Source: an uncultured Verrucomicrobiae bacterium
GTDB taxonomy: Bacteria; Verrucomicrobiota; Verrucomicrobiia; Limisphaerales; JAFGQR01
Direction of reading: 5' to 3'
Length of the DNA stretch: 64,000 nt
Assembly (NCBI GenBank): GCA_963788655.1
Contig: CAWBHS010000027.1
Span: 1 to 64,000 of the forward strand
Under the pieces are notes generated by a model, which was not told the origin of the DNA, ran no database searches, and was given only the letters and a program-made list of their open reading frames with translations. Position 1 is the first letter of the stretch. The number at the start of each line of letters is the position of its first letter. Below, piece after piece: positions 1,852-54,944 of this stretch. Made by a program: the position numbers and the translations under genes.

Positions 1852-1855
1852 CATC

Positions 1856-9284: not shown

Positions 9285-9330
9285 CGCCATGAGAGAACAT
9301 CAAAACATTCCAGGAACGAGATTCAAGACT

Positions 9331-9406
9331 GTAGCCGACGACGTAAGAAGGTGGATTCGCCGATGCACAGTGTCATGGAGGTCCGCCTCCTTACTTCGTC
9401 GGCCAC
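9331..9406. repeat. GTAG-type REP doublet
   Basis: gtagccgacgacgtaagaaggtgga ... tccgcctccttacttcgtcggccac imperfect inverted repeat. Confidence 0.7.
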
Positions 9407-9450
9407 TTGTTTTTGGGAATTTCGATCACGTTTCATCCCCTCACTAAGCC

Positions 9451-11039
9451 ATGCTTTCCGTCATCATCCTGTTGCCATTGGTCGTCGCGCTGCTGCTCTG
9501 TTGGGTGCCGCGCGAGATTCGGTTTGGCATTCGCCTGATCGCGCTGGCGGCCACCTTGCTCGACTTGTTGCTCGCCGGCGCATTGTTTCTGCGTTTCGAA
9601 ACCGGGCTTGCCGGATACCAATTCGTGCAAAATGTCTCCTGGGTGACCGCGTTGGGCATCAACTATCATGTCGGTGTGGACGGGGTGAACATCGGTCTGA
9701 TACTCATGGGCGCGGTGGTCGCCTTTGCCGCCACGTGTGTGTCGTGGGAAATCAAATCCCACGAGAAGGAATTCTATATCCTCCTGCTGGTCATGACCGG
9801 TGGCATCCTGGGCGCCTTCGCGTCACTGGACCTGTTCTTCTTCTATTTCTTCCACGAATTGGCGTTGGTGCCGACCTTTATCATGATTGGTGTCTGGGGC
9901 CGCGGGGAGGACAAGAATTACGCCACGTTCCAAATCACGCTTTACCTGAGCCTGGGCGCGCTCATCGCGTTGATTGGCTTGATCGCGCTCTACCTGCAAA
10001 TGCCGGTGGGACAACGTTCGTTCGATATGGAGACGCTGACGGCTTATTTCCAGGCCAATCCCATGCAGGCTTCCGCGCAGCATCTGATTTTTCCACTGTT
10101 GATGTTCGGCTTTGGCATTTTGGTGTCGCTGTGGCCGTTTCACACTTGGGCCCCGCTCGGCTACAGCGCGGCGCCAACGCCGACCGCGATGTTGCACGCC
10201 GGCGTGCTCAAGAAGTTCGGATTGTACGGCCTGATCCGCATCGCGTTGCCGTTGATGCCGCAGGGCGCGAAAGATTGGCTCGGCCTGCTCGCTGGTCTTG
10301 TGCCTGGGCAATATCCTGTATGTCGGTTGGGTGGCCATGCGGCAGCGCAACCTCAACCTGCTGATCGGTAATTCCAGCGTGGCGCACATGGGACTGGTCT
10401 TCCTTGGGATCGCCAGCCTGAGCTTGATCGGGGTGACCGGCGCGGTGCTGGTCATGGTGGCGCATGGCTTCCTGGCGGCGCTGACCTTCGGCCTGAGCGG
10501 CTACCTGTATCAGCAGACCGGCACTTTGGAAATGGACCGTCTTGGCGGACTGCTGCGCAAGTTGCCCTTCCTCGGCACGGCGATGATGATGGCGATGCTG
10601 GCCGGTTGCGGGGTGCCGGGTTTTGCGAACTTCGCCGGCGAAATCCTGGTGCTGTTCGGCACCTGGAAAGGCGCGTTGCTGGCCAGTCCGCAATGGTTTG
10701 TGGTGTTGGCCACCTGGGGCGCTTTGATCATTGGCGCGGTTTACATGCTGCGCGCCATTCGTCGGATCTTTCACGGTCCGCTTCGTCGAACTACCGACTT
10801 CCGCAGCCGATCCCAGCCTGTGGCGCAAGCTGCCGTTCGCGTTGTTGCTGACCGCGTTGCTGGTCTTCGGATGTTTTCCGCGCTTGTTGACCGACAAGAT
10901 CAAGCCGAGCGTCGCGGGGATCGTGAACCTGGCAACGACGACCAAGGCTGCGGTGGCGCAGGCTCAAGCCGAACCGAGTCAATCTATGTTGGCAAGGAAA
11001 TCATTGGCTTCCAGGGAAGCCGGGGATTTGAAACGATGA
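9451..11039 (+). CDS. nuoM: NADH-quinone oxidoreductase subunit M (two frameshifts)
   Basis: WPFHTWAPLGY, AGVLKKFGLYG, SSVAHMG, GVPGFANFAGE across ORFs 9451, 10298 and 10731. Confidence 0.94.
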
Positions 11040-11087
11040 ACGGCTTCAAGCTAATCCTATTTTCCCGCATTGAGCCCTTGAACCATT

Positions 11088-11334
11088 GTAGCAGCGGACG
11101 TGAGTCCGCTCTATCTGAATTCGAAAAGAGTCAGAGCAGACTCACATCCGCTGCTACGCGGTTCGTGGGGAGGGAGGACGTTCAACGCGTGGAAAAAATA
11201 CCGAACACCTTGCCAAGATCGCTCGGCAGTTTGCACGAGCGGCGCGACGGCGCCGAGGGCTTGCGCCCCAACCAAATCTTTGCGCGTGTTCGTTGGCTGT
11301 TCCCTCTCCTTGAGGGAGAGGGTCAGGGTGAGAG
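11088..11334. repeat. REP cluster: GTAG doublet (11088-11157) plus a single CCCTCTCC-type REP (11300-11334)
   Basis: gtagcagcggacgtgagtc...gactcacatccgctgctac; ccctctccttgagggagagggtcagggtgag. Confidence 0.75.
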
Positions 11335-11446
11335 CGAACAGGCCGTCCTGCCAATTATCTCCTCTCAAATATGCACTGACCTGCTGGAACTCGACAAGTC
11401 CTCCAGCATATCCGAAGGCTACGACAAACGGAAATGAAGTGCCCGC

Positions 11447-12940
11447 TTGATGAATTTATCCTTGCTCAATCTTGAAATCGCGGTGGCCCTGCTGGGGATC
11501 GGCGTGTTGTTGATGGACCTCTGGCTGCCGCCGGAGAAACGGCGCCAGTTGGGATACCTGGCGGCCATCGGGGTGGCGTTGATCTTCGTTTCCAGCTTTG
11601 TCTGGCCGCCGCTGCAATTGAAATTCACGGTCGGGCCGTTCATCTTCCAACGCATCGAAGTCGCTTTCGGCAACACTTATGTCATGGACCTGCTGGCGCT
11701 GTTCTTCAAACGCTTCTTCCTGCTGGCCGCGGTGTTCGTCCTGGTGATGGCGGTGGATTTTTCGGACCGATTTAAGGCCGGCGTTTCGGAGTATTTCAGC
11801 CTGGTGCTGTTTGCGTTGCTCGGGATGATGTTCGCCGCCTCGGCGTACGACTTCGTCATGCTGTTCGTTTCCATGGAACTGATCACGGTGACTTTTTACG
11901 TGCTGACCAGTTTTCAGCGGCAACGTTTGGTCTCATTGGAAGCCGGCGTCAAATACCTGATCCTCGGCGCGGTGGCGTCTGCCGTCATGGTCTATGGCAT
12001 TGCGTTGGTCTATGGCGCCAGCGGCACCATGAACTTTGGTGAACTGGCGAAGAAATCCGCCGAACTCAACAGCCAACCAATCTTCCTGCTGGGGCTGCTG
12101 CTGTTGCTGATGGGCTTGAGCTTCAAGATCGCCGTGTTCCCGATGCAAATCTGGACGCCGGATGTTTATCAAGGCGCCCCCACACCGACGACGGCCTTCC
12201 TGGCGGTAGGCTCGAAGGCGGCCGGTTTTGTCTTGTTGCTCCGGGTGTTGTTCAGCGCGGTGCCCGGCGTCACGATGCACTGGGTCAAACTGCTGATGGC
12301 CGTCTCGGCCGTGACGATCCTCTACGGCAACCTGTGTGCGATTCCGCAGCGCAATCTCAAACGGCTGTTGGGCTATTCCAGTATCGCGCACGCGGGCTAC
12401 CTGCTGTTGGGGGTGGTGGCCATGGCAGCGAATTTGAAGAATCCCATGCCGGGCGGGTCCGCCATTCTTTATTACCTCAGCGGCTACTTGTTTACCGTGT
12501 TGGCCGCGTTTGCGGTCATCGCGTTGGTGATGCGCGCGGCGGAAGCCGAGGACATCAGCGGGTTGGCCGGATTGAACACGCGTTCACCGCTGTTGGCCAC
12601 GACCATGACGTTGGCCATGGTTTCGCTCGGAGGCATCCCGCCGTTGGCTGGCTTCTTCGGAAAGTTCCTGCTGTTCAAGGCGCTGATCGAACAAGGAACC
12701 GCGTACTACTGGCTGGCCGCCGTGGCCATCATTGGCGTGGTGATTTCGCTTTACTACTATTTTGGCGTGATCCGGGTGATGTACTGGTCAGAGCGGCCCG
12801 CGGACTTGTCGCCCATCCCGGTGTCGTGGCCCAACCGGACGTTACTCTACGGTTGCATGGCCGGCATGCTGGTGCTCGGAGTTTTTCCCGGCGTGCTGGT
12901 GAACGCCGCCATCCAGGCGGTCAGCGTGTTTCGGCTGTAA
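11447..12940 (+). CDS. nuoN: NADH-quinone oxidoreductase subunit N
   Basis: EAGVKYLILG, FKIAVFPMQIWTPDVYQGAPTP, KRLLGYSSIAHAGY, GIPPLAGFFGK. Confidence 0.97.
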   Translation: MMNLSLLNLEIAVALLGIGVLLMDLWLPPEKRRQLGYLAAIGVALIFVSSFVWPPLQLKFTVGPFIFQRIEVAFGNTYVMDLLALFFKRFFLLAAVFVLVMAVDFSDRFKAGVSEYFSLVLFALLGMMFAASAYDFVMLFVSMELITVTFYVLTSFQRQRLVSLEAGVKYLILGAVASAVMVYGIALVYGASGTMNFGELAKKSAELNSQPIFLLGLLLLLMGLSFKIAVFPMQIWTPDVYQGAPTPTTAFLAVGSKAAGFVLLLRVLFSAVPGVTMHWVKLLMAVSAVTILYGNLCAIPQRNLKRLLGYSSIAHAGYLLLGVVAMAANLKNPMPGGSAILYYLSGYLFTVLAAFAVIALVMRAAEAEDISGLAGLNTRSPLLATTMTLAMVSLGGIPPLAGFFGKFLLFKALIEQGTAYYWLAAVAIIGVVISLYYYFGVIRVMYWSERPADLSPIPVSWPNRTLLYGCMAGMLVLGVFPGVLVNAAIQAVSVFRL

Positions 12941-13129: not shown

Positions 13130-13645
13130 GGTGTTGGCCCAACGCCTCGCACCCGTTTCAAAAACGCGTTACAGCAGGCGCATCCCGAACTCCTGGCCGC
13201 CATTCCCGCCCAGATCTGGTCGGGGGGACTGGGTGGCCGACGTGCAACCCGTCGGCTCGGGCGAACCGGCCTTGAATACCTGGCCGCTTACGTGTATCGC
13301 ACCGCGTTCAGCGCCGAGAAAATCCTCACCGACTACGGCCAACACCTCACCTTCGCGTACCGCGACAACACCGGCCAGCGCCAGACCGCCACCCTCACGC
13401 CGGAGGCCTTCCTGGACCGCTTCCTCCAGCACGTGCTGCCCCGCGACCTGCAACGCGTGCAGTACTTCGGCTGGCTCAGCCCGGCGGCCAAGACCCGCTT
13501 CGAGCGCATCGCCGCCCTACTCGACTGGACGGCCCCCGCCCTGGAACCTACGCCCCCGCGCCCGGCCCGGGAATGTCCGTATTGCCACCAGCCGATGATG
13601 CACCTGCGTTGGCTGCCGCGCGCGCCGCCGTTCGACACCTCATGA
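13130..13645 (+). pseudogene. IS91-family (Y2 HUH) transposase, 3' fragment
   Basis: WVADVQPVGSGEPAL-YLAAYVYRTA (YxxxY), FLDRFLQHVLPRDLQRVQYFGWL, C-terminal CPYC. Confidence 0.85.
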
Positions 13646-14038: not shown

Positions 14039-14452
14039 TTCGGAGTTCCACAAGTTTTTTGGAATTGCCTTCCAAGGAGAAATTGGGCAAGAGCCCAGCC
14101 AACCAGTAATATAACTGCTGGAACGGCGATAGTGCCAGCAACGACAACTTCGATTGGTTGGTGGAAACTATGTTGGTAGGAGCCGCAGTGCATGACAGTC
14201 ATCCGCGGATCGCTGGATTTGAGACCAACGAATCCGTAGCTCCCACCAGGACCCTTGATAGTCCAGTTGTGTTCGATCTGCCTGGCTTTCCAGATGCGCA
14301 GCGCTCCGATTATTGCGAACGCGCATGCATGACTGATTGGCGAGCCACAAAGACCGCACCATCATCAATTTCATCGCGCCTCCGCCAAAATCGGCCGTCC
14401 CGCAGCCACCATCTGCCAGTCCCGCAGGGACGCCCGACAATAGCCCTCCGTT

Positions 14453-14887
14453 TCAACGGTGGGTTGGCGTGCGCCAAAGAAAATCGAGTCCCAGCGGGAC
14501 GAAAGAAATCCTACCGCACCATTTCCGCCAGGCCCGAGCATTCATCCGTGGTTTTCTTCCTGCAGAGACACCGTCTGAGCAGCTCAAGGAAACAACGGTT
14601 CCATGGTGCTGCCAATAGAAGGGCCGCCGATGCGGATGCATTACGGCTTTAATGTAGAGGGTATCGCCACGCACGCTGTAAACGATGGCGTAAGGGAAGC
14701 GATCGAAGTTGAGCTTGCGATTGTCTCCGCGGATTTTGCGCCAGCGCTCCGGTTCGGCCACGATGCGGCGCAAGGTCCGTTCGAATTCATCCAGGAAGTC
14801 ATCGCCGAGGCCCGGCTGCCGTTGTTCATACCACAGTGCCGCGCCTTCCAGTTCCTGCTCGGCTTCAGGATGGCTGACGACGTGCAT
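14453..14887 (-). CDS. RelE/ParE family toxin (expected stop near 14600 missing; reads on to 14453)
   Basis: HPEAEQELEGAALWYEQRQPGLGDDFLDE...RFPYAIVY...AVMHPHRRPFYW. Confidence 0.88.
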   Translation of the reverse strand: MHVVSHPEAEQELEGAALWYEQRQPGLGDDFLDEFERTLRRIVAEPERWRKIRGDNRKLNFDRFPYAIVYSVRGDTLYIKAVMHPHRRPFYWQHHGTVVSLSCSDGVSAGRKPRMNARAWRKWCGRISFVPLGLDFLWRTPTHR

Positions 14888-15110
14888 TGAGCTTGGCACG
14901 AATATTCCGGATGGTTTCTTCCAAGGGGCGGCATTGGACCTGGCCTTCCTCAATCTCGCGGGAGCGCCGGTCAATCACTTCGTTCCACTGCGTTTCGGCG
15001 TCAGCGTCCACCGTGCCGTCAAGGCTGGCGATGAGTTGGTGGGCCAGGTACGCCCGGTCCTGTTCCGGCAACGCCAGCATCTCGGCCACCTTTTCTACGG
15101 TTATGCTCAT
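14865..15110 (-). CDS. Putative addiction-module antitoxin
   Basis: LALPEQDRAYLAHQLIASLD...WNEVIDRR; overlaps toxin start. Confidence 0.88.
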   Translation of the reverse strand: MSITVEKVAEMLALPEQDRAYLAHQLIASLDGTVDADAETQWNEVIDRRSREIEEGQVQCRPLEETIRNIRAKLNARRQPS

Positions 15111-15473
15111 GCGCGAATAATATCGCCTTTGCCGCCAGAATGACAAGGGCCGCCCTCGGCGGTTTCTGGCAGTTACGCCGGAAGCTGAGAAGGTAGGCTG
15201 CGACGCCCTGACTTCCCCCCTGAGCGCATCCATCAACCCAAAGTCGGGCAACGGGAATTTTTGGTCTTGCCGTAACGATTCACTGGGAAAGGGGAGCGCG
15301 CCCGCCCCGGGCGCCGTGGTTGGCGCCTCGCCAACCACTTTCGAGCAGCCCGATTATCGTGCTAATCCGTATCTATGCAATTGCGGTAAGGCGGAACTGC
15401 CGTTCCACCATGCGACTGAGGCGCTTTTGCATAAGCGGGATAACATAGTAGCTTGGAGCCTGTTTGAAAAATG

Positions 15474-15733: not shown

Positions 15734-16013
15734 CTAAGAGCCTGTTTTAAAATTTGGCGTGGTCCTGTTTTCGCGGAAAAGGCCGGCTGGCGAGGCGCGA
15801 CGAAGGAGCATACCCGCAGCGGTCTGTGACTGAGGAGCAACGAAGCCAGCCGGCCTTTTCAGTGAAAACCCGCAGGGCGGCGGGTCTTTTGAACGTGGGC
15901 TTCGTTGGCTCGATCCGTACAGCCCACTGCGGGGATGCGCGGACCTCGCCGCCTCGCCCCCGTCCAAAATCCCTCGCCGCAGAACCTTGCCCCATTTTAA
16001 AACAGGCTCTTAG
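15734..16013. mobile_element. MITE (non-autonomous element) with 20-bp terminal inverted repeat
   Basis: ctaagagcctgttttaaaat (15734-15753) and attttaaaacaggctcttag (15994-16013); internal hairpin aaaaggccggctgg/ccagccggcctttt; no coding capacity. Confidence 0.8.
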
Positions 16014-16211
16014 CCGTGACTATGCAGTAGGACAGGCGTCTCGCCTGTCCCGAACGAGTGCAAACCAACAACTTGTATCACGGCGCCGTGAGTCTTTTTC
16101 TATGTCACCAAACGGTAAGGATGTCTTGGGCTATTAGAGACAGGCGAGACGCCTGTCCTACCACGCCGAACCGCGTCATCGCTGCTCCAGCTACTGAATG
16201 GATACGGCTTA
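16011..16211. mobile_element. MITE-like element enclosing a GTAG REP doublet
   Basis: Ends agccgtgactatgcagtag / ctactgaatggatacggct; inner gtaggacaggcgtctcgcctgtc / gacaggcgagacgcctgtcctac; shorter related copy at 25675-25765. Confidence 0.65.
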
Positions 16212-16913: not shown

Positions 16914-16929
16914 CAGACTTGACCCGAAG

Positions 16930-17052
16930 AGCCAACCAGACGCTGGAGGCAACAGCCGCTGAGTCAGGCATTATGACCGTCACTGGCAACACAACACCAT
17001 CGGATTCGATCACACCGCTCGCCAGCGGCTGTGCCTGCACTGATCGTTGGCC
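16930..17052 (+). other. attC site 1
   Basis: agccaac...aggcaacagccgctg ... cagcggctgtgcct...gttggcc. Confidence 0.85.
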
Positions 17053-17077
17053 GGAGAGGTATTCGACCCTTTGAGCC

Positions 17078-17449
17078 ATGTTCCTTGTCGAGAAACTGCG
17101 AGACGAGACACTTCCGGATGTCGAGGCATCCCTGGAGGTTCTTGTCCGGGAGATTTACGGCAGGCGTCCTGAGTGGCTGGAGTATGATTTGCGTGGGAGC
17201 TACCGGTTTCAGGGTCGAGAATTCATTATGATGTTCTGTCCGGCAGGTAGCGTGCATTCCCACCTCACCCTTCGAGCTTTGACCGGAGACGGAATCAGCC
17301 GCGACATTTTGCAGTTGGGGACGAAAGAAGGTCGTCGACTGGCCTGGTTGATTCGTCAGGGCAAGCAGTCGGAATATGATCCAGCCGAGGTCGAAGAGAA
17401 CGGCCAACCAGGCGCGTCAGGCAACCGCCGCCCCGCGCCTCGACATTGA
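17078..17449 (+). CDS. Gene cassette 2: hypothetical protein
   Basis: 123-aa ORF between attC1 and attC2, running into attC2. Confidence 0.65.
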   Translation: MFLVEKLRDETLPDVEASLEVLVREIYGRRPEWLEYDLRGSYRFQGREFIMMFCPAGSVHSHLTLRALTGDGISRDILQLGTKEGRRLAWLIRQGKQSEYDPAEVEENGQPGASGNRRPAPRH

Positions 17450-17529
17450 CCTTTGCCGGTGATATGAACGCCATCATTACCAAGCGTAGAGCCCGCTTCC
17501 GGCGGCGGTGCCTGCGCTGGTCGTTGTGC
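17402..17529 (+). other. attC site 2
   Basis: ggccaac-caggcgcgtcaggcaaccgccgcc ... ggcggcggtgcctgcgctggtc-gttgtgc. Confidence 0.8.
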
Positions 17530-17545
17530 CGAAAATGATTGCATC

Positions 17546-18190
17546 ATGACGTCGCGGGAGTTCTATCAGCTTTTGGATCGCTGCCTTGAGCCAGGAGTGC
17601 AGCCGGTTAGGGCTGTCTCGGAAGCGTGGCACCGTATCGCTATGGTATGCGACTCTTCCCCAGCGGCACTTTCTTCTACGAGGTTTCCAAAGGTCCGAAG
17701 AGTCCGTTCATCCCGTATCTCGGTGGACGGTTCAAGGTCGACTGTGATCTTGCGCCTTCTGCGGATCACAAGCTGCGGGGGTTGCAGACGGCGATTTCGT
17801 ACATGGAGTTCTTCTCCGATGATGATTTGATGGCCATGCAGCAGCTACGGGATCGAGGACCTGCGTAAGATCATCGGCCAGAAGCCACCCGAGGTGCTCG
17901 ACCAGTTGATGCTCGAAAGCCATACGCCCTTGTTCCGCTGGAGATTGGTTCGCAGTTTAGGAGGCATCAGGTTTTCAAGCTGCCGTACCTGGATGCCGAG
18001 GACGTCTCAGCATCGGGGGCAATTCCTCGCATCACGTATGGAGCACACCCTGATTGAGGTGCGGGAGAGACCGGTATTCTTCATGCGAGTCGAGAACGGC
18101 CAACCAGCGGGTGGAGCGAACGGGGACCAGCCGATTCGCTCGGGGGCAAATTCAACGTCGTCGGAGGCTGGTCCCCGTCGCTCACCCTGA
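17546..18190 (+). CDS. Gene cassette 3: hypothetical protein (frameshifted)
   Basis: Overlapping ORFs 17546, 17626 and 17894 fill the space between attC2 and attC3. Confidence 0.5.
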
Positions 18191-18199
18191 TCGTTAGCC
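18098..18199 (+). other. attC site 3
   Basis: ggccaac-cagcgggtggagcgaacggggaccagcc ... ggctggtccccgtcgctcaccctgatc-gttagcc; extrahelical bases evident. Confidence 0.9.
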
Positions 18200-18212
18200 C
18201 AATTCGTGCGTC

Positions 18213-18521
18213 ATGGACAAAGAGACGACCATTTGTTTTATCGGGCTCGTTGCCTCGGTGTATCTGTGGTTTTCGGCGATTCTTGTTCGGGGCATCTGGA
18301 TACAGCGATACGTCGTGCGCAATGGCCAGCGAGCAGCGCCCTTCGCCCTGACACTTTTCACAGGATGGGGCGTGCTGATTGACTATCGCAGAGCGCGCCG
18401 CATTGCAGCGCAGCAGCACCATACACCTTGGTTTTTGCGGTGCTTCGCGTGGCTTGCCGGGCTTGGTATGGTTGGCTTTATCAGCACGATGGGATACGTT
18501 TGTGTCACTGCATTCCTGTGA
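18213..18521 (+). CDS. Gene cassette 4: small membrane protein
   Basis: 102 aa with about three hydrophobic segments, bounded by attC3 and attC4. Confidence 0.75.
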   Translation: MDKETTICFIGLVASVYLWFSAILVRGIWIQRYVVRNGQRAAPFALTLFTGWGVLIDYRRARRIAAQQHHTPWFLRCFAWLAGLGMVGFISTMGYVCVTAFL

Positions 18522-18531
18522 TGATGATTTG

Positions 18532-18657
18532 GGCTAACAAGTCGGTGGAGACGAACCGCCGCCCCGCTTCTCCGTTCAACGCTGGGCGGCAATTCGAGAG
18601 TGCCTCGTGCGCTCCACCGTCCCTGTCGGCGGCGGTCGCTCACCTCTGGCGTTAGCA
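18532..18657 (+). other. attC site 4
   Basis: ggctaac-aagtcggtggagacgaaccgccgcc ... ggcggcggtcgctcacctctggc-gttagca. Confidence 0.92.
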
Positions 18658-18669
18658 CCAGACGCCCTC

Positions 18670-19065
18670 ATGACGCCGAAGCGCAAAAAGCTGTGGATTG
18701 GGTTGGGACTCTATGCCGTCCTCTGGACCGTTACCGGCGTTTTGGGGCTTCCACAGATTGACCGTGCTTTTGATCGGGAGTTTGCATCCGGTTCACCCGA
18801 TGCCTTCGCGACAGACGAGCATCCAGCGCGCAACGTGCCAGCTTCCAGGGTTCCCTACGTGCGAGTCACAGACCCGAGCAAGCATTCACTCCCCGACATT
18901 CCCTTCCGCAGCCGCTCGACTGGATTTCCCATCGCTCCATTCCTGGTCATCGATGAGGCTTGTGTTGCTGAGGCACCGCTTGCAGCCTTTTCCGGTCGGC
19001 GCATGGTTTTCTGGTTCTTTGGTTACACTCGATGGTTTCCTTTGAAAGTATGGTGGGTGTCGTGA
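18670..19065 (+). CDS. Gene cassette 5: membrane-anchored hypothetical protein
   Basis: MTPKRKKLWIGLGLYAVLWTVTG...WFFGYTRWFPLKVWWVS. Confidence 0.75.
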   Translation: MTPKRKKLWIGLGLYAVLWTVTGVLGLPQIDRAFDREFASGSPDAFATDEHPARNVPASRVPYVRVTDPSKHSLPDIPFRSRSTGFPIAPFLVIDEACVAEAPLAAFSGRRMVFWFFGYTRWFPLKVWWVS

Positions 19066-19069
19066 TTTG

Positions 19070-19195
19070 TGCTAACAAGTCGGTGGAGACGAACCGCCGC
19101 CCCGCTTCTCCGTTCAACGCTGGGCGGCAGTTCGGGAGTGCCTCGTGCGCTCCACCGTCACTGTCGGCGGCGGTCGCTCACCTCTGTCGTTCGGC
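19070..19195 (+). other. attC site 5 (near-identical to attC4)
   Basis: tgctaac-aagtcggtggagacgaaccgccgcc ... ggcggcggtcgctcacctctgtc-gttcggc. Confidence 0.92.
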
Positions 19196-19198
19196 CAA

Positions 19199-20400
19199 AT
19201 GAGACAGCTTTTGCCATTGTTGATAACTCTGATGCCGATGCTCGGCAAGAGCGAGCAAGCCGCCGGGCAAATGCCAGATGATTCAGTCCTTCATTTCAAG
19301 TTCGAAGTGTACAGCGGCAGAAGGCGGTGCCCTATATCGCACGCCCGGCTTTCGGACGAACTATGACAACCACGTTTTCGCGCTGAAAGTCGATTCCAAT
19401 GATCGGGTATGGGTTGGTACTGCCGAGCGGTTTAGGAGTGTATGACGGGAAACAATGGACACACAGAACGTTTCAAAACAGCATGCCTGCGGGACTCCGT
19501 CTGACTCTCGGATTGATTGCGGGAACCACGTGCGGTCCGTCGCATATCGAGGAAGGGCCACAGGGGACAGTCTGGCTCGGCGGTAATTTCGGAGTCTGGC
19601 GGTTTCGCGGGGGCACGTACGAGGAGCTGAGCTCGAAAATTGCAGGGATGAACAGCATGGCCGCCGATAGTGATGGCAGTCTCTGGGTCGTTGATCGGTT
19701 TCGTGTTTTTAGGTATGACGGCAAGAGTTGGAGCCAGGTCTTGTGTCCCTATATTGGCAAGCCTGCGAGCTTTGAGGCTTCCGGTTTCCGGGGAATCGTC
19801 ATCGAAACCAACGGATTTGTCTGGATTGGCGCTACTGCTTACCACGAGATGGAAGCTCCATTGGAGCATAAGGGCCTCATTTGGATAGTGGATCAGGACC
19901 GCAAGCAGCGAGCGGGTGGACCTCCCATGGCGCCGCTATTCGCGTTCGATGGAAATCGCTGGCGGGCTTTTGGCCCGGAGGAAGGACTGGACGCCTTTTA
20001 CAAAGGAAGGCAAGGGAGTGCGGACCGAGGCACTCCGAGAGGGTGGGCTGCTCCGCGTCTGAACCAAGCAGGCCAGTTGACAGTCGCGACGCCAAATGGT
20101 CAGTACCGGCGGGAGGGCGAGTCCTGGAAGCCGGTCGAGGCAGCTGATCTGTCCTTGGGCCAGAGATGGAAGCTTCAGATGCACGGTCGATTCGGAGATT
20201 ACGGAGAATTGCTTTATCGGGACGGGGATCGGCTTGTAACGGTCCAGCCGATCAGTGATCGAACCGGCGAGGTATTGGATCTGAGATCGGACACCTTCGC
20301 CTCGCTGCACCTTGCCGAAGACCCGGCCAGAAATTGTGTCTGGCTCGGAACATGGCATGGACTTTATCGGATTTGGGAGGATGGTGCGAAGAACAGATGA
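19199..20400 (+). CDS. Gene cassette 6: secreted beta-propeller-like protein (frameshifted 5' part)
   Basis: Signal-like MRQLLPLLITL; repeated motifs GTVWLG, DGSLWV, YDGKSW, GFVWIG, NCVWLGTWHGLY. Confidence 0.65.
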
Positions 20401-20415
20401 ACGAAGGATGATGAG

Positions 20416-20521
20416 GCCGAACCAAGCGACGGACCGAATGAGGAGGAGCGCCGGGCAGCCGCTTGCTCCAATCGAGCGTCTGTGGCGCGCTCCTCCTCAT
20501 CGGTCATCTTGATCGTTCGGC
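20416..20521 (+). other. attC site 6
   Basis: gccgaac-caagcgacggaccgaatgaggaggagcgc ... gcgctcctcctcatcggtcatcttgatc-gttcggc. Confidence 0.9.
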
Positions 20522-20529
20522 ATAAAGCT

Positions 20530-20922
20530 ATGTCCACCGCCACAAAGTGGAAACTGATCGCAATCATCGGCTGGATAATTGCGGTCGCGCTACTCGGTCT
20601 TGCGGGTTTGAGGACAGTGGAATCTCGCACAGGAGGTGGTTCTGCGATTGACTCGCCGGACGGGACGAGCACGGCTTGGCTAGACTCGTATCGGAAAATC
20701 GGGCCACTTGTTCGTGATACGAACGTGTGGATAGATGTTTGCATTCAGCCCAAGGGGATTTCCGGCGTTGCCAATTCCAGGTATTTGAGGTTTTCATGTC
20801 CCGATGCAGACATTGGGGATGAGATGTATGCTCGGAACCATGACGGAGCCATTTCTTGGAGTTCCGATTCCAGGACGGTTCGCGTGATTCTGCCCAGGAA
20901 GGAGATCGTGATTACCAAATGA
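20530..20922 (+). CDS. Gene cassette 7: exported/membrane-anchored hypothetical protein
   Basis: MSTATKWKLIAIIGWIIAVALLGLAG..SPDG..ISWSSDSRTV. Confidence 0.75.
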   Translation: MSTATKWKLIAIIGWIIAVALLGLAGLRTVESRTGGGSAIDSPDGTSTAWLDSYRKIGPLVRDTNVWIDVCIQPKGISGVANSRYLRFSCPDADIGDEMYARNHDGAISWSSDSRTVRVILPRKEIVITK

Positions 20923-21070
20923 GCACAAAGCCGAACAATCGCTGCAGGCAACAGCCGCTGCGCCGGGCAGTTGACCGGTTTATGAAACTTGAACATCATC
21001 ATTGCAGGCCACGCCCGCTTTCGGCGGCTGTGCCTGAGCTCATCTCTGAGGTGAGCGATCAACCAATTTT

Positions 21071-22409
21071 TCATTTTTTCTTCGCGGCTTTAGCGCCCTT
21101 TTGCTGGCGGCGGGTGTAGGGGTTTTTGCCTAACTCAATCTGATCGAACAACGCCACGATCGGGCTGCCGTGGCGACGCAGCGCTGCCTCATAACGCGCC
21201 TCGTCATAGACCTCGTGGCGCTGCCAGCAGCACCAGAGGATTCGCTGCCATTTGTAGGCCAGCGCCCGGATCGCGACGTGATGGCTGGCCCCCGCCTCGC
21301 GCGGTTGTAAGTAGTAGGCCGCGGCCCAGCGACTGAACAGGATCGAGCTGCCGGCATACTCGTGAAAGCTCTGCCGGCAAAACTTCGGACAGAGATAGCG
21401 CCGATGGACGTGTCGCTTGTTGCCACTCTCTTTGGTGACCGGGGCGATGCCACTGTAGCACTGGAGACTGACGACCGTGGGAAAACGCTCGCGCTGGCTG
21501 CCCACCGTGGCCAACAACCGGGGCGCCAACACCGAGCCGGCTCCGGGCAGGTTCTTGAAGATGACGTAATCGGGGTGCGCCACAAAGCGCTCCTTGATCT
21601 GCTGATCGTAGGTGTCAATGGCGGCGACGACCAGTTGGAGTTGGCGACAAATCAATTGCACGCGCAAGGCGTAGGTTTCCACCAGGGCCGATTCCTCGGT
21701 GAGAGCAATCGCCTGCCTAATACATTGGAGCCGCTGGTCCAGCCGGGAAGCGCTGTGGGAATTGTGCTGGCGATAGAATTGTTTGAGGGTGGCTGGCTTG
21801 ACCTTTTTGATCGCCGCCAGCGTGGGCCATTTCAACAACAAATCGGTGGCCAGCGGCCGCCACAGTTCCTCGCCGCACAGCGTCAACGCCTGCGGAAAAT
21901 AAGCCTTTAAGAGGGCTTGCAAGCGGTTGGTCAACTCGGTGCGTTCGTCCACCACCGCGCGGCGGTGGGTGACGGTTTGTTGGAGGTGGCGAGTGGCGCT
22001 GTCCTCGGGCATGCCACACGGTCAGCTTGTCGTGGTGAGTCAGCAGCAGTTCAGCTAAATAATAGGCGTCCTGGGTGTCGTCCTTGGCGCGGCTGGTGAC
22101 GAAGGCTTCCCGGAAATTTTTCAACGTCATCGGGTTGATGGCGTAGAGGGTAATCCAGGCATAGCCTTCCAGGAAGGCCAGGAGGTTGGCGGCGGGTTGT
22201 TCCACGCAGATCGCCACCCGGCCCTGGGGATGTTGCTGGCGCAGTTGGGCCAGCCAGTCGTGGAGGGCCTCGGGACTGGTGCCGATGGTTTGGTTGGCAC
22301 GCTGGTGGGTGCGCACGTCAATCGTGTGGAGATCGGCGGTGGCATCGGAGCGGTCCAGGCCGATGACCAGGTCATACGGATAATCTTGCTTCATCGTCGA
22401 ATCATTCAT
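21071..22409 (-). CDS. IS110-family DEDD recombinase/transposase (frameshift near 22015)
   Basis: VIGLD, CVEQP, RAKDDTQDA (DEDD RuvC-like); LPGAGSVLAPRLLA, YSGIAPVTKESG (Tnp domain Ser-Gly), AIRALAYKW. Confidence 0.93.
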
Positions 22410-22435
22410 GGTTTATAGTTGGGTGGTTTTCCCGC

Positions 22436-22600
22436 AGGCTTGACCCGGCGACGGTAATATAGAAGAGTTCTGACTGCAAGCGCGAACGCCCTCTGAGAAG
22501 TCGTTAGAGGGTGCAAGCCCGCCCCGTGGGCCGGTCGATAAAGCTCAAAGTCGTCCAGGCGACTGGTCGTTCGCAGACCTGGCCCACAGAGGCGAGAAAA
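22436..22600 (-). ncRNA. Predicted IS110 bridge RNA (target-binding and donor-binding loops)
   Basis: Two consecutive stems with internal loops; loop segments match the attC7 target and the IS circle junction on opposite strands (see findings). Confidence 0.8.
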
Positions 22601-22763
22601 CCGGGATACCCTACGGCACCGATGCAACGAATGCGAATAAGTAAATGTCATCATCAACAGTTCGGCGGCGCAGTTATTGACCGGCGGCTGCGGCGGAGCA
22701 ACGCGGAGCGCGCCTGGCCACCGGTGAATAACTGCGGATAACCTATATTGATCGTTATGCGGC

Positions 22764-23093
22764 ATGCGTACATTCCCAACAATGAGAGTTTGGTTGCCAG
22801 TCATAGTCGGTTTTGTCTTAGGCTTGTTTTTTGCATTGCCTGTTTTGAGCCGAGGTGTAGGTGATTGGTTTGAGGGCCATCCAATGACGAATCAGATTTA
22901 TGAAGTGTTGCATTTTCCAGCTATTATTTTGGCGTATCTCTTCGGGTTTATGTCCAACCCAAGCGAGATTGGCGCGGTTGGCGATGCTTTACCATATACT
23001 GTCATCATTCAGTGGCTCTTGGTTGGCTTTGTTATCAGCGCGATTGTCTATTGGAGGCAGTGCCGCCGTGAACATGCAAAAGACCTCGCCTAA
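22764..23093 (+). CDS. Gene cassette 8: membrane protein
   Basis: AT-rich, about three TM segments; stop TAA lies in the gcctaac box of attC8. Confidence 0.75.
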   Translation: MRTFPTMRVWLPVIVGFVLGLFFALPVLSRGVGDWFEGHPMTNQIYEVLHFPAIILAYLFGFMSNPSEIGAVGDALPYTVIIQWLLVGFVISAIVYWRQCRREHAKDLA

Positions 23094-23213
23094 CAAGCGG
23101 ATTCACACGAACCGCCGCCCCGCGTTTCAGTTTCGATGCGCCGGGTTCTTCGCACACTGGATTCGCTGCCAGTGGCCGTTTCCGGCGGCGGTCGGTGATC
23201 CTTGGCGTTAGTT
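23088..23213 (+). other. attC site 8
   Basis: gcctaac-aagcggattcacacgaaccgccgcc ... ggcggcggtcggtgatccttggc-gttagtt. Confidence 0.9.
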
Positions 23214-23490
23214 GTGACATGAAGTCGCATTCATCACTGCTGAGCATGGGCAACCTGACTCAGCCCTGCCTTTCGCGGCAGGTATTCCAGGGGAGCATGC
23301 GTTGGGCGGGCGGCCGCAAGGCTACTGTCCAGGGTGTGAAGCCTTCCCGACAATGTAGCCAGCCTGGGAGCCTCAATCCGGGTGCGGCGCTAGAATTGGA
23401 TGGTAGGGTCAACCCACGTGAACACTCGCAAGCATCGTCAGAGGAACGAGCCAGACGAGGCTGTTTTAAGGCTTCGATCAGAAAATAGCC

Positions 23491-23760
23491 ATGAAGAAGG
23501 CCCCAACTGTTTATGCCCTGCTGTTTATTAATCTAGGCATTTTCGTAGCTACGGTTACTTTCTTGCCAAGACGGGGATCATGGGGTTCCAGCGGGCCGCT
23601 CAGTTACTTCCTCAATTCTCGTGCTCGTTGGGATATCGCATGGGGCGTCCTCGTTGCGGGCATTATCCTTTCTATCGGCATCATCTTTTTACTTTACGCT
23701 AAAGGCGCATTTGAACAGAAACCAAAGAAGATTGAACAAGCCGTCGATCCTAACGCCTGA
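23491..23760 (+). CDS. Gene cassette 9: small two-TM protein
   Basis: 89 aa, AT-rich, ends inside attC9. Confidence 0.7.
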   Translation: MKKAPTVYALLFINLGIFVATVTFLPRRGSWGSSGPLSYFLNSRARWDIAWGVLVAGIILSIGIIFLLYAKGAFEQKPKKIEQAVDPNA

Positions 23761-23855
23761 CCCGCCCCGAGACGGAAGCGTCATGACAACTCAACCCTTA
23801 CCCCAGCAGTCGGAGCGCGTCCTCGGTCAGGCGTAGGATGACTCCAACGTTCGTG
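23731..23855 (+). other. attC site 9
   Basis: attgaac-aagccgtcgatcctaacgcctgacc ... ggtcaggcgtaggatgactccaac-gttcgtg. Confidence 0.75.
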
Positions 23856-23955
23856 GTGACATGAAGTCGCATTCATCACTGCTAACGCCGATCACCTTTG
23901 CCTCTGGAAACTTCGCAGTCCCTGGTTCGAAGACGGGGAAAAGGGAGATCGGGTC

Positions 23956-25469: not shown

Positions 25470-25674
25470 ATCGATCAGGTCAAAGCTTTGGTTACCACTG
25501 CCCACAGCAGGATGCCAACGCGAGTTCGCTTATCCTAGCATTTCACGCCGGTAAAGCCAAATCGATGGGGCAACGCGGCACGGGCATACCGAGATTCGGT
25601 CGGCGCGCTTGAGCTTCGCCCGTCGATCCGGCACGAATATCGGTGTTCCTTGAGAAATCGTCTCCCGTTGCCTG

Positions 25675-25765
25675 AGCCGTCACTATTCAGTAGGAAAGGC
25701 GAGACGCCTGTCCTACCACGCCGCCTCCCCTTTATCGCAGCACCAGCCACTGTATGGATACGGCC
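25675..25765. repeat. Short copy of the 16011-16211 element
   Basis: agccgtcactattcagtagg..aggcgagacgcctgtcctaccacgccg...actgtatggatacggc. Confidence 0.65.
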
Positions 25766-26652: not shown

Positions 26653-26772
26653 TTGGAGCCTGATCCAAGAACAGACTTCCGAAAAACTTGTGGGAACTTC
26701 TGCGGGTTCCGATTCAACTCCAATCACGTCTTGTAAAACGGCGACTGGCCTTGTAGCTTCTAAATGGATTTT

Positions 26773-27205
26773 GGAAGAGCGGAGAATCGCCTCGAGTGCA
26801 AACTCGGGGAGGAAAGTCCGAACTCCACAGGGCGCGATGCCGTGTAACCCGGTTCGGTCGCAAGGCCGGGTGTGGGATATACACGGGAGAAACGGTTGAA
26901 GCCGTTTCGACGGACAGTGCCACAGAAAACGAACCGCCGGTTGGGGAGTCCTCCGGGTAACCGGGTGACTGCCGTACCCGCAATCGGTAAGGGTGAAAAG
27001 GTGGGGTAAGAGCCCACCGCTCCAAGAGCAATCGCGGAGGCACGGAAAACCCCATCGGGAGCAAGGCCAAATAGGGGACCTCGGAGCGGCCCGCTCCAGC
27101 CGCGCTCACGCGCGGCAGGTTCCGGGTACTGGCTGCACAGACAAATGATTCTCTCCCTGGCGCTTGTTTGGGCCAGGCAGACAGAATTCGGCTTACAGCT
27201 CTTCC
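26773..27205 (+). ncRNA. rnpB: RNase P RNA (type A)
   Basis: gaggaaagtccgaact, gggtgaaaaggtggggtaagagcccacc, acagaattcggcttac; P1 ggaagagc/gctcttcc. Confidence 0.97.
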
Positions 27206-27900
27206 AAAATCCCCAAATCCAACTCGGCCGTGGTTTCCGAACTGGCCAAAGGTTCGACAAATCCTGGCTGGTCGTCTTTCGGGCTGTTCACGCGCGAGCT
27301 GACCGGGTACCCGGTCATTTGCGCTGCTGGAAATGGACCCCACAATGGCGGCAAAACGTCGGCGTTGGCGCCTTCGAGGTCGAGCCAAGTCCGACAACCC
27401 TCCGGTGACAGCATGACGGGCATCCGGTCATGCACTGGTCGCAGGACTTCATTGGCGGAGGTGGTCAGGATTGTGAACGTCGCCAGTTCCCGGCCTTCCG
27501 ATCCGTGCCAACGGTCCCACAATCCCGCAAACGCAAATGGCGCCTTGGTACGCAACCGGAAATAGAAAGGTTGCTTGGAACGTCCGGACTTTTGCCATTC
27601 GTAGAATCCATCGGCCAGCACCAGGCACCGGCGGTGGGTCAGCAGTTTTTTGAACGCGGGCTTTTCCGCAATGGTTTCCGTCCGCGCATTAATCATTCGA
27701 TGGCCAATCTTTTCGTCCTTGGCCCAAAACGGCACCAAGCCCCAGCGCATCGACTTAAGGTGTTGCCCCGCGATAATGACCGGAGCTTCCTGCGACGGCG
27801 CAAGGTTGTAACGGGGTCGGAGCAAGCGATCATCCCCATCGAAATCCAGGAGCTGTTTGATTTCGTCGGGCTTGCAGGTTTGCGTGTATCGGCCGCACAT
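27193..27900 (-). CDS. SOS response-associated peptidase (SRAP/YedK family)
   Basis: N-terminal MCGRY, INARTET, GFYEW, HDRMPV. Confidence 0.95.
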   Translation of the reverse strand: MCGRYTQTCKPDEIKQLLDFDGDDRLLRPRYNLAPSQEAPVIIAGQHLKSMRWGLVPFWAKDEKIGHRMINARTETIAEKPAFKKLLTHRRCLVLADGFYEWQKSGRSKQPFYFRLRTKAPFAFAGLWDRWHGSEGRELATFTILTTSANEVLRPVHDRMPVMLSPEGCRTWLDLEGANADVLPPLWGPFPAAQMTGYPVSSRVNSPKDDQPGFVEPLASSETTAELDLGILEEL

Positions 27901-28647: not shown

Positions 28648-29907
28648 TTAGCTGAGAATTCCTGAGGCAAACAGAACTCCCAAATCCGGTTCGCCCTGCT
28701 TCCAATCTCGCAGCGCCGGATGTTTGTCGCCGGAAACGATGTCGGTGGCGCCCGCGGAATCTTTTGCGAAACACAAAACGTCTCCAGGCTCCAAAAGGTT
28801 CAATGCAACCGGGCTGTGCGTGGCCACCAAAATCTGGCTTTGGTAAACGGAGGCAAGGGACTGGAGGACCGTTTCGATGGCCCGCGGATGAATGCCGTTT
28901 TCGGGTTCTTCGATCAAGAATGTGCCGGCGAGATTGGGAAGATAAGCGGGAATCGTCAGGGTTAGCAAACGCAGGGTTCCGTCAGAGGTTAGCCAGGAAG
29001 GCACCTTGGCTCCGTTTGCATATTCGATCACCAAATAACGGTGTCGATCCTCTGGTCGTTCAATCGTATCAATGTCCTGAATGTCCTCGAGAGCGGTGCG
29101 CACGTGATCCAGCCAAGCTCGAAACCGTTGTTGATCCTTTCGCAACTCAGCGATGACCCAAGGCAAATTCGAACCGTCAGTCTGAAAACGGCGGCCTAAT
29201 CCTGGCGCGCTGGGTTGGCGAATCACTTGGCTGTTAAGTACAAAAGTTTGCACTCCTTTTTCCAACAGATTGCGAAACCAAGTGCTCACGGGGAAGCTCT
29301 CTGTGTCGGATGGAAGATTCGCCAAGGCTGATCGCCCCCGCCCCCCCTTGTAGGACGGTTTGTACGATTGTTTCCCCTCGGTGTAGTAATTATCGTTGCC
29401 GCCAGGAGTTTTGGTGATGGCCGCTTTCATTGTCTTTTTCGCGCGGCATAAGATTGAGGGCGTATCAGCTCGAAGTTCTGGAAACATTTCCCGTTGAATC
29501 GGCGTCGTATTCAGCATCGGCTCCATCAGCCATAGCGTTTCGTGATCCAGACCGATTTCATTGCTTGCTTTGTCCAAGCCCACTTCGACTTCGTAACGCA
29601 GCTTGGTAAAACGCTGTTTGTCTGCCGCCATGGATTTTCGAATGTCGGACGGGATCTCTGCTTCGACGGCCAGTTGAAACGAGCGGCCCTGCCCCATCCA
29701 CACCAGATTCTCGAAATTGCTGCTGCGGGCCTGAACCGTGCTTAACACATCCCCTCGATTTCGCGTCAGATCGCTCAGGAATCCAACAACATCGAGGAAC
29801 GTCGTCTTGCCACTGGCATTGGGACCCACCAAAGCCCGGAAAGGACCAATGGTCTGGTCGATCGATTTCAAACACCGGAACCTGCGGCTCTGGAGGCGCG
29901 TAAACAT
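28648..29907 (-). CDS. ABC/AAA_21-type ATPase, MAD3-like
   Basis: Walker A GPNASGKTT, signature SDGTLR, Walker B LIEEPENGIHP, H-loop ATHSP. Confidence 0.88.
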   Translation of the reverse strand: MFTRLQSRRFRCLKSIDQTIGPFRALVGPNASGKTTFLDVVGFLSDLTRNRGDVLSTVQARSSNFENLVWMGQGRSFQLAVEAEIPSDIRKSMAADKQRFTKLRYEVEVGLDKASNEIGLDHETLWLMEPMLNTTPIQREMFPELRADTPSILCRAKKTMKAAITKTPGGNDNYYTEGKQSYKPSYKGGRGRSALANLPSDTESFPVSTWFRNLLEKGVQTFVLNSQVIRQPSAPGLGRRFQTDGSNLPWVIAELRKDQQRFRAWLDHVRTALEDIQDIDTIERPEDRHRYLVIEYANGAKVPSWLTSDGTLRLLTLTIPAYLPNLAGTFLIEEPENGIHPRAIETVLQSLASVYQSQILVATHSPVALNLLEPGDVLCFAKDSAGATDIVSGDKHPALRDWKQGEPDLGVLFASGILS

Positions 29908-29964
29908 ATTAAATTCTGGATGGATGGCTGAAGCCAATGATTCTCAGTGGAATTACACCGTTGC

Positions 29965-30054
29965 TGGCGGAAGGGGGGGGATTCGAACCCCCGAACGAGT
30001 TACCCCGTCTCCTGATTTCGAGTCAGGTACAATCAACCACTCTGCCACCCTTCC
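29965..30054 (-). tRNA. tRNA-Ser(CGA)
   Basis: Minus strand GGAAGGGTGGCAGAGTGG..CCTGA-CT-CGA-AA-TCAGG..long variable arm..GGTTCGAATCC..CCCTTCC-GCCA. Confidence 0.97.
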
Positions 30055-39200: not shown

Positions 39201-40121
39201 GGCGCGACCGTGGCGGACGCGCAGGCGACGCGTAAAGTGGCGAGTGGTCTGCAGGTGGTTTCCGCCAGCTACGGTGATCCCGCAAATCCCGCGCGGCGGA
39301 TGGATGTGACCGACCTTGTCCGCCAGGACTTGTCGCGTGGCCTGACCACGATCGCCGCCAACAATGACTGGGCCGGCGGCGATCCGGCCTTGAAGACAGT
39401 CAAGAAGCTGTGGGTCGTGATCCGACTACCAAACGGACAAGCGAAGCACCTCGAGGCCACCGAAGGCGAGACGCTGCCCGTCGTTGACCCGGCTCCCGCG
39501 CCGCGACCCGCGTGCGACATTTTGGACGGTGGCACCCGACTGCTAGCCTGGGAGTCGGGCGTTTACCGCGAGACCCGAGAGGACGGAACATCTTCTAAAT
39601 GGGAGACCCAGGCACCGAGAGTTGTCTCACTGACGGGACCTTGGACCCTGGCTTTCCCGGCTGGCTGGGGCGCGCCCGAATCACTGCGGGTGGGCAAACT
39701 AAAGTCTTGGACGGAGTTGAATCTTTCTCCCGAGGCGCGGGCGTTTTCCGGAACGGCAACGTACACCACCGAATTTACCTTGGACCCGCTTTCGAAGGAT
39801 TCGCGTATGGAACTTGACCTGGGGCGCGTGGAGGTCATCGCCAGCGTGCGTCTCAACGGCGAACCAGTCGGGACCGTTTGGACGCCGCCATACCGGCTGG
39901 ACGTAACCCGACTGGCGAAGCCCGGCGTCAACCGCCTCTCGGTGGAAGCAACCAGCACCTGGTTCAACCGACTGGTTTACGACGCGGGGCAGGACGAAAA
40001 AGCGCGTAAGACGTGGACCATCAGCGGTCCCGCCAAAGGCAGGGCTCTTCGACCCGCGGGCCTCTTGGGTCCGGTGACCGTGCGGATCGGCCAAACGCTG
40101 ACTACGCGCGACCGTCGATAG
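36269..40121 (+). CDS. GH106-like alpha-L-rhamnosidase (frameshift near 37910; start uncertain)
   Basis: PETWFHFIGGNV, GWAMAGGPWI, GWECDKLS, DSWE, VPMCEFW, AAESFT, LDLGRVEVIA, GLLGPV. Confidence 0.85.
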
Positions 40122-44129: not shown

Positions 44130-44439
44130 AGCTAGGTTGTCAATTATTCTCCGGTTGTCTGAATTAATGCCCGGCACCGACCGGGACGCCTGCTCCGGAT
44201 CGTCCCCCCACTCGGCGGGTCACCGGCGCAACCACGGGCTTGAACATCCACCATCGAAACGGGAACTGCCAATCCAAAAGTGCCGTCCGGGCTGAATGCC
44301 GGCTGACGGCACGAGTCCACCGAAGCGGGTGCCTTCCAAGACAAACCTTGACCGACAAGGGCTGAAGTGAAATGAATTTCCTCTCGCTAAAAACAGTCTT
44401 TAGCTGACACAACGAATAACATTAGATGCATGCTTTGAT

Positions 44440-54879: not shown

Positions 54880-54944
54880 GAGAGCATTTCAACAAATGGT
54901 CGCCGATAGGTTAGTCCGGAGTCGCATGGTTCCCTCGGTTCGTA

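Follow-up and report, generated by a model that had tools for sequence, protein, structure and literature searches.

The window, a 64-kb stretch of DNA, contains an insertion sequence that very probably belongs to the IS110 group proper and encodes a bridge RNA whose guides specify the L'-R' spacer of an integron attC site together with the element's own ends. The group assignment follows from the placement of the guide RNA upstream of the recombinase gene. The original prediction had described an RNA-guided recombinase aimed at attC, and this description is supported by a conserved two-loop RNA and by covariation between its guides and the flanks of related insertions. The features are collected in Table 1.

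Table 1. Positions of the insertion sequence, its RNA and guides, and the attC sites around it, in window coordinates
Feature	Position	Strand	Basis or remark
IS110-group insertion sequence, about 1.7 kb	21040..22749	-	RA core copy counted at each junction
Recombinase gene, two frames	21071..22409	-	ORFs 22409..21717 (homologous through codon 132) and 22012..21071
Bridge RNA gene, about 176 nt	22427..22602	-	model R1, built without the window
Left target guide CGAACGACCA	22564..22573	-	same sense as left flank
Right target guide UGAGCUU	22541..22547	-	antisense to core and right flank
Left donor guide CUCAGAGG	22490..22497	-	sense of the element's right end
Right donor guide CUAUAUU	22456..22462	-	antisense to second core base and TATAG, left end
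Conserved long-range stem AGTTATTCA...TGAATAACT around a GC-rich insert	22660..22735	-	30 left ends aligned
Short right end, 29 nt	21042..21070	-	sequence reading
Left flank, the 3' piece of attC no. 7	22750..22760	-	junction reading
5' piece of attC no. 7	20930..21039	+	repeat families D3, D4, D7, D9
Eight attC-like sites	16926..23213	+	direct-repeat families; each behind a short + strand ORF

The element lies within an array of direct repeats. Each repeat has an RYYYAAC core at its start, a GTTRRRY core at its end, and L boxes, and ORFs stop just before and start just after each site. The bottom strands of four sites fold as bulged hairpins, with z values of -1.3 to -4.0. The repeats are integron attC sites. 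None of the 116 ORFs scanned in the window matched an integron integrase (Phage_integrase); the integrase gene may lie outside the window or be fragmented. The seventh site is cut in two by the element, with R'', L'', and L' on one side and R' on the other. Its 5' piece starts with R'' (GCCGAAC, 20930-20936), followed by L'', the variable part, and an L' ending in ...GCCTGAGC at 21039. Its R' reads GTTATGC on the + strand (22754-22760) with spacer bases before it, and ORF 22764..23093 (+) begins right behind this piece. As read from these junctions, the element is inserted in the L'-R' spacer of the seventh attC site and is oriented antisense to the cassettes.

The ends of the element were set from 28 related left junctions, at least 25 right junctions, and empty attC sites. 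All 28 relatives whose left junction was read adjoin a YYTAAC-like motif, which is the attC R' core in reverse complement. These left junctions consist of YYTAACG, three to six variable bases, (A/G)A, and TATAGG, and the right junctions are constant through ...GGATTACCTCAGAGGTGA and variable from the following base. Among the matches listed for the relatives' loci, empty attC sites read CTAAC-GTCCA[GA]GCT-CAGGCAC in L001, L004, and L017, with GTCCAGAACT and GAACCAAGCT as variants. Filled sites read ...GTCCA[GA]TATAGG (L007 and L011) and ...CAGAGGT[GA]GCTCAGG. When empty and filled sites are overlaid, the crossover falls on the RA dinucleotide in the L'-R' spacer that is common to both; the exact cleavage positions presumably lie within or around this core. 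The two core copies of the window element read AA at 22749-22748 and GA at 21041-21040, its left flank reads CATAACGATC[AA], and its right flank reads [GA]GCTCAGGCA.

The consensus target derived from these comparisons is CTAACGNCC(A)[RA]GCTCAGG, which corresponds to the L'-spacer-R' end of attC on the bottom strand, and the derived circle junction is ...CCTCAGAGGT[GA]TATAGGTYATCC. The target that had been predicted from the guides, AACGACC-AAGCTCA, coincides with this consensus, which was obtained independently from the left and right junctions and the empty attC sites. Two other placements of the crossover were rejected. With a CA core directly before ATATAGG, the target would be GAGGTGAGC, and the empty sites, CTAAC-GTCCAGAGCT-CAGGCAC, are too short for it; GAGGTGA is moreover invariant across insertions, and everything behind it is variable. 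A GAT triplet duplicated at both junctions suits the window copy alone and is contradicted by the relatives. A loose regular expression for attC ends was dropped, as its matches were mostly noise.

Relatives of the element were collected by a protein search, which gave 2510 relatives among 6167 candidates; scanning one genome per species yielded 80 loci out of 138 confirmed relatives. BLAST and alignment show that the left end is common to about 29 of the 80 loci. In these 29 related loci, 25 of which are labelled Verrucomicrobia-type, the same bridge RNA lies upstream of an IS110-family recombinase of about 445 aa. A covariance model of the RNA, R1, was built from 24 relatives with the window left out. 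R1 finds the window RNA, matching 22602-22427 over its full length (positions 1-175 of 175; 154.8 bits; E 1.9e-34, a rough value because model calibration was short), and it finds nothing else credible in the window. The 80 loci give 72 matches to R1, comprising 30 strong ones on the + strand (141-206 bits, in 29 loci), 23 weaker ones on the + strand (24.7-71.2 bits), and 19 on the minus strand that are echoes of palindromic stems. Every + strand match at these loci is directly upstream of the recombinase gene. The window RNA scores inside the family range and keeps all helices.

The RNA is composed of an outer stem around a target-binding and a donor-binding stem-loop, each with an internal loop. 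The two-arm fold drawn in the original prediction is recovered by the minimum-free-energy fold of 22610-22430 and is conserved in the relatives. The energy of this single-sequence fold is not significant by itself (z = -1.82; 11 of 200 shuffles fold equally well). RNAalifold predicts 46 pairs from 29 sequences, 14 of them with double changes. When 45 pairs were counted over the 29 aligned RNAs, 97.3% of cells pair. Double changes occur in 14 of these 45 pairs, versus 2.9 +/- 1.4 in shuffles and at most 7 in slid controls, and none of five pairing measures was reached by any of 500 shuffles. L036, which has a 35-nt insertion in the target loop (about 1810-1845), and L039, which the left-end search pattern missed, were omitted from the RNA alignments. 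A search of 20500-23500 against Rfam (E up to 1) returned no family for the bridge RNA and only a piece of a group II intron. Among the outcomes named in the original prediction as counting against it were the lack of a conserved two-loop structure and the lack of guide/flank covariation. Neither occurred: the structure is conserved and, as described below, the guides covary with the flanks.

Upstream of the bridge RNA, a conserved long-range stem lies in the left end's 5' part (Table 1). It shows paired changes in L012, L020, L024, L038, and the window; L020 and L024, for instance, have GTTGTTC/GAACAAC. In L005, a left end standing alone (502-840) holds an entire bridge RNA (205.6 bits) and lies 1.1 kb upstream of a complete copy of the element (1614-3345). 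L010 has a 19-nt duplication of the left-end start at 1618-1660.

The four loop segments proposed as guides were found in place by sequence reading and by the model match. Their arrangement is that of IS621-type RNAs, as had been proposed, with left guides in the sense of the flank and right guides antisense. In IS621, left guides pair with the bottom strand and right guides with the top strand, core included (PMC11208160). The segment AACGACCA (22571-22564) agrees with the left flank AACGATCA (22756-22749) at 7/8 positions, the value first reported, and the longer left target guide agrees with the window copy's own flank, ATAACGATCA, at 7/10. Within the family, the left guide matches the left flank at 10/10 positions in 4 of 28 junctions and at 8/10 or more in 17 of 28. 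Summed over the junctions, the agreement is 216 of 280 positions versus 205.1 after shuffling; 488 of 100,000 shuffles reach the observed value in this test, which used 28 of 29 rows and ignores the relatedness of the elements.

The right target guide UGAGCUU was correctly placed in the original prediction (22547-22541). The flank assigned to it, AAGCTCA, is its reverse complement and did not hold: the actual right flank is GAGCTCA (21041-21035), so the match is 6/7, with a possible G.U pair at the seventh position. Among 26 elements, the right guide matches the first five flank bases at 5/5 positions in 17, at 4/5 in 8, and at 3/5 in 1. L005a, L009, and L008 lack a usable right flank, and removal of duplicates reduced the 26 elements to 23 events. 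In these events, 106 of 115 positions match versus 93.3 after shuffling, and none of 100,000 shuffles reaches this value; this test also ignores relatedness. The left guide thus follows the left flank with a weaker signal than that of the right guide with the right flank. Variants of the right guide are accompanied by changed flanks: UGACC by GGTCA in 3/4 cases, UGAGU by ACTGA in 3/3 (at 4/5 positions), and UCACU by AGTGA in 1/1. In L007 and L020, the right guide encodes a GA core, and the left junction is GA.

The two-guide match was also compared with mock targets at every position of both window strands; 3 of 383,880 position/register combinations reach the observed match. There is no perfect site for the encoded target in the window, and the best remaining one is the L'-R' end of attC no. 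6 (20501-20524, -), which matches the left guide at 9/10 and the right guide at 5/7 positions. Under a rival explanation, the matches between loops and flanks would not reflect guides. The left end of the element could be attC-derived or palindromic, with the protein or the shape of the attC hairpin picking the target. Since attC is a conserved and partly palindromic site, a CTAACG match comes cheaply; the signal for the left guide is modest (216 vs 205 of 280); and AACGAC occurs three times in the bridge RNA. We nevertheless consider this explanation highly improbable. Among independent insertions, differences in the variable right guide go along with differences in the flank (0/100,000 shuffles), and subfamily B, described below, has another target and matching, different loops at the same structural positions. 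In addition, guide RNAs have been demonstrated experimentally for this protein family (PMC11208160, PMC11208158, PMC11187229). The data favor the reading of these loop segments as target guides.

The donor segments stood as predicted: CUCAGAG (22497-22491) equals CTCAGAG in the right end (21050-21044), and CUAUAU (22462-22457) is complementary to ATATAG (22748-22743). In the window, the left donor match leaves out the T directly before the core. The family guide, CUCA(A)GAGG, matches the right end CTCAGAGG and likewise ends before T and core, such that in both family A and subfamily B the match is one base short of the 2-nt core. The gap between the donor-left match and the junction, raised as a caveat in the original prediction, is therefore real; it is a clade-wide trait rather than a defect of the window copy. 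As first drawn, the left donor guide includes a GAG that falls within a predicted stem, and none of the pairs of this stem covary. Within the family, the right donor guide, CUAUAUU, does not vary, and it and both target guides reach the core. The base next to it is A in the window versus G in all 24 sequences of alignment A3; in the family, this G fits the last base of the left target and not the donor.

The left end of the element (22747-22410, about 338 nt) holds the RNA. In the modelled circle junction, a -35-like TTGATC (21062-21057) is 17 nt from TATAGG (22747-22742). The pattern TTGAYN, 17 nt, TATAGG is present in the window and 13 relatives; other relatives have TTGCCG or TTGTCG in place of the first hexamer. 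A promoter formed from joined ends is known for IS621 and ISEc11/ISEc21 (PMC11208160, PMC11187229), and by analogy the one modelled here would be functional. Sub-terminal repeats, CGGATTACCT and AGGTNATCCG, are complementary at 8-11 of 14 positions in 26 relatives and at 6/14 in the window.

The recombinase gene is split into two frames. ORF 22409..21717 matches the first 113 positions of DEDD_Tnp_IS110 (PF01548, E 9.6e-14), and ORF 22012..21071 matches the tail of PF01548 and Transposase_20 (PF02371, E 4.8e-13). The first frame corresponds to residues 1-132 of the intact 445-aa protein P0002 (123/132 identical), and the second corresponds to its residues 134-436 (268/303 identical). The gene therefore has one break, at about codon 133, and is otherwise undamaged. 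The motifs GLDRS, EQP, and DDxxD are found in the window translation and are invariant in alignment A1. TKESG is also present; its S328 and G329 are invariant in A1 and align with ESGS of ISCro4, and this serine is likely the catalytic residue equivalent to IS621 S241. P0002 matches NF033542, "IS110 family RNA-guided transposase," with 163.3 bits versus a cutoff of 140. Since the gene is split, each of its two window fragments falls under this cutoff, with 103.1 and 40.1 bits. A profile of 22 relatives matches the solved structures of ISCro4 (9t56, E 3.4e-12) and IS621 (8wt6, E 4.7e-11), and the GxDxS, E, DxxD, and SG motifs align in the ISCro4 alignment. By these sequence matches, the protein family is the RNA-guided IS110 family.

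The window copy may be inactive: its gene is frameshifted, the repeat in its right end has diverged, and a G next to the right donor guide is uniquely changed to A. These features raise the possibility that it is a bridge-RNA element that has become a dead relic, with guide matches that record a past insertion. The break at about codon 133 fits this account, as do the weakened right-end sub-terminal repeat (6/14 vs 8-11 in relatives), the A in place of an otherwise invariant G, and the single copy of the element in the 64-kb window, as counted by the covariance model search. Both recombinase halves, however, are 88-93% identical to the intact protein and have no stops, and all RNA helices are kept, with 154.8 bits lying within 141-206. 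Several housekeeping genes of the window are also split, including nuoG-like, nuoL/M-like, GH106 rhamnosidase, and T2SS/T4P ATPase genes (1856-3554, 7680-12940, 36269-40121, and 54889-56344). This pattern suggests indel errors in the assembly, so the recombinase frameshift may itself be an assembly or sequencing error. We therefore regard the relic account as possible but doubtful. Under either account, the bridge-RNA assignment is the same.

Targeting of attC by an RNA has been shown for the IS1111 members ISKpn4, ISPst6, and ISPa25, in which the RNA lies downstream of the gene (PMC11187229). The window element could in principle be a member of this described IS1111-attC group (ISPa21, ISPst6, ISKpn4) that uses a seekRNA. 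It shares with this group the attC target and the antisense orientation (PMC3001079), and its family's sub-terminal repeats of about 10 bp are inside the IS1111 range of 7-17 bp (PMC11208160). In the IS110 group, as distinct from IS1111, the non-coding left end is long, the RNA precedes the gene, and the right end is short (PMC11208160, PMC11187229). In the element, the RNA likewise lies upstream of the gene, within the long left end, and the downstream end has just 29 nt. Its protein has about 445 aa versus the 330-350 aa of IS1111 transposases (PMC11187229), and it is inserted at the L'-R' end of attC, whereas IS1111-attC elements are described near the attC 5' end (PMC3001079). The repeats of the relatives, at about 10 bp, depart from the 2-3 bp taken as typical of the IS110 group. 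We give membership in the IS1111-attC group almost no credence and retain the assignment to the IS110 group proper.

Several other likenesses to the IS1111-attC elements ISKpn4, ISPst6, ISPa25, and ISPa21 are evident. Both kinds have a DEDD-family protein and are antisense to the cassettes (PMC11187229, PMC3001079), and the seekRNA, like the RNA described here, has two short matches on opposite strands of one attC end (PMC11187229). They differ in RNA placement, which is upstream here and downstream there, in protein length (PMC11187229), and in position within attC. For IS1111-attC elements, insertion is described near the attC 5' end (PMC3001079); family A inserts in the L'-R' spacer and subfamily B at R''-L''.

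The element also resembles IS621 (PMC11208160, PMC11208158). Both have a DEDD and serine recombinase, and in both a long left end encodes the RNA. Each of the two internal loops contains a left guide in sense and a right guide in antisense orientation, and the 2-nt core, which the right guides include, is present on both sides of the element. In a handshake-like manner, the base that follows the right donor guide suits the end of the left target and not the donor. The promoter, here a predicted one, is divided between the two ends. There are also differences. The protein has about 445 aa versus 328 aa in the 8wt6 chain, and the core is RA (AT in subfamily B), whereas that of IS621 is CT (PMC11208160, PMC11208158). 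The left donor guide ends one base before the core, and the sub-terminal repeats are about 10 bp versus 2-3 bp in IS621 (PMC11208160). An extra outer stem surrounds both stem-loops, and the target is a structured integron site. The ISCro4 transposase (9t56) is the best solved-structure relative by profile, aligning in two stretches over the RuvC-like and Tnp domains. It is distant, at 25.4 and 22.3 bits per stretch, and is likened here by protein profile alone.

Group IIC-attC introns are also RNA-based mobile elements that home to attC in antisense orientation (PMC3001079). They are retro-elements with a ribozyme and a reverse transcriptase (PMC3001079), unrelated to the present element in sequence and mechanism. 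The array that contains the element also has a match to the group II D1-D4-7 model, at a distance of 650 nt. It spans 23264-23389 (+; 62.4 bits, E 9e-12) just after attC no. 8 and is flanked by two 36-nt direct repeats (23206-23241 and 23848-23883; 94% alike). Neither an intron-encoded protein nor a match to domain V/VI was seen.

In the first stem-loop, the inner loop holds both target guides: the left one has the sense of the bottom-strand R' core and spacer, CTAACGNCCA, and the right one is antisense to the core and to GCTCA, the L' sequence on the bottom strand. Guides for the right and left ends of the element lie in the corresponding loop of the second stem-loop. A mechanism can be proposed by analogy with IS621 and ISEc21. 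The element would be excised as a circle, joining of its ends would create the promoter (TTGAYN, 17 nt, TATAGG), and the RNA and the DEDD/serine recombinase would be produced. The RNA would then bring together the circle junction, ...CCTCAGAGGT[GA]TATAGG..., and the attC duplex, and strands would be exchanged at the RA dinucleotide.

A second group of relatives, subfamily B, consists of 12 loci with 37-48% protein identity in which the RNA architecture is kept and the loop sequences are different. Its target, read from junctions and four empty sites, is GCTCCATCGC[AT]GGTTAGG. The left target guide is CUCCAUCGCC, and the right target guide is antisense to AT-GGTTA. The left donor guide is CCUCAGAUG; the right donor guide is antisense to AT-TATTG, and the GC behind it fits the left target's end. 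The opposite strand carries the cassette ORFs of L052, so that subfamily B is placed at the R''-L'' end, antisense to the cassettes. Family A occupies the L'-R' end and subfamily B the R''-L'' end of attC, both in antisense orientation. Further distant relatives, L025, L034, L028, and L031 (left ends near 1031, 1697, 310, and 295), start with TATAGG, yet have other target loops; their left flanks, of which GTTGCCTCCAGCGGAT is an example, resemble an L-box and spacer. The clade as a whole may be associated with attC sites.

We lean, by a little, toward a broader interpretation in which these elements form a Verrucomicrobia-centred clade of IS110-group bridge elements that specialised on attC independently of the IS1111-attC elements and was naturally reprogrammed between attC ends. 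The clade would have features not described for IS621: the left donor guide stays clear of the core, the core is RA or AT and is read in the RNA by UU or AU, and the sub-terminal repeats measure about 10 bp. If this interpretation is right, the elements would split attC sites and could freeze or reshuffle cassettes in chromosomal arrays without a nearby integrase.

The mechanism itself is already known, since RNA-guided attC targeting has been published for the IS1111 branch (PMC11187229); it is left unchanged by a new example within the IS110 family. In the literature searched, no IS110-group element with an upstream RNA aimed at attC was found. Neither "integron" nor any of the three natural target strings occurs in the supplementary files of Durrant et al. 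2024 that were examined, and the terms attC, integron, and cassette are absent from the bioRxiv preprint 10.64898/2026.08.14.744561. A plasmid collection of 1314 records holds no relative above 60% identity and therefore no annotated close copy. A named or published copy may exist elsewhere, for example in ISfinder, metagenomes, or viral contigs.

The element represents natural, sequence-readable programming of a bridge RNA against the recombination site of another mobile system. Guides can be compared directly with their targets in about 30 close relatives and about 23 distant ones, and two subfamilies aim at opposite attC ends. For integron biology, it points to a second lineage of RNA-guided elements that split attC, found in environmental phyla with large, little-studied arrays. 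For tool building, it offers an additional scaffold with a different core and donor geometry.

The surroundings of the array show several other features. Three repeat pairs that are 82-97% alike and about 9.5 kb apart (16009-16208, 25672-25764; families D8, D11, and D12) bracket it. A ParE-toxin/antitoxin-like pair (14453-15338, -) and a fragment of a Y2 (IS91-type) transposase (13292-13645, +) lie just before it. Elsewhere in the window, a prokaryotic STING domain (E 9e-11) is found in one ORF (43530-44177, -) and an AAA_21/AbiEii-type ATPase in another (28648-29937, -); both are possible defence genes. RNA searches also located RNase P RNA class A (222.7 bits; 26771-27211, +), one tRNA (29968-30054, -), and a match to the Acido-Lenti-1 sRNA (43.8 bits; 14418-14463, -).
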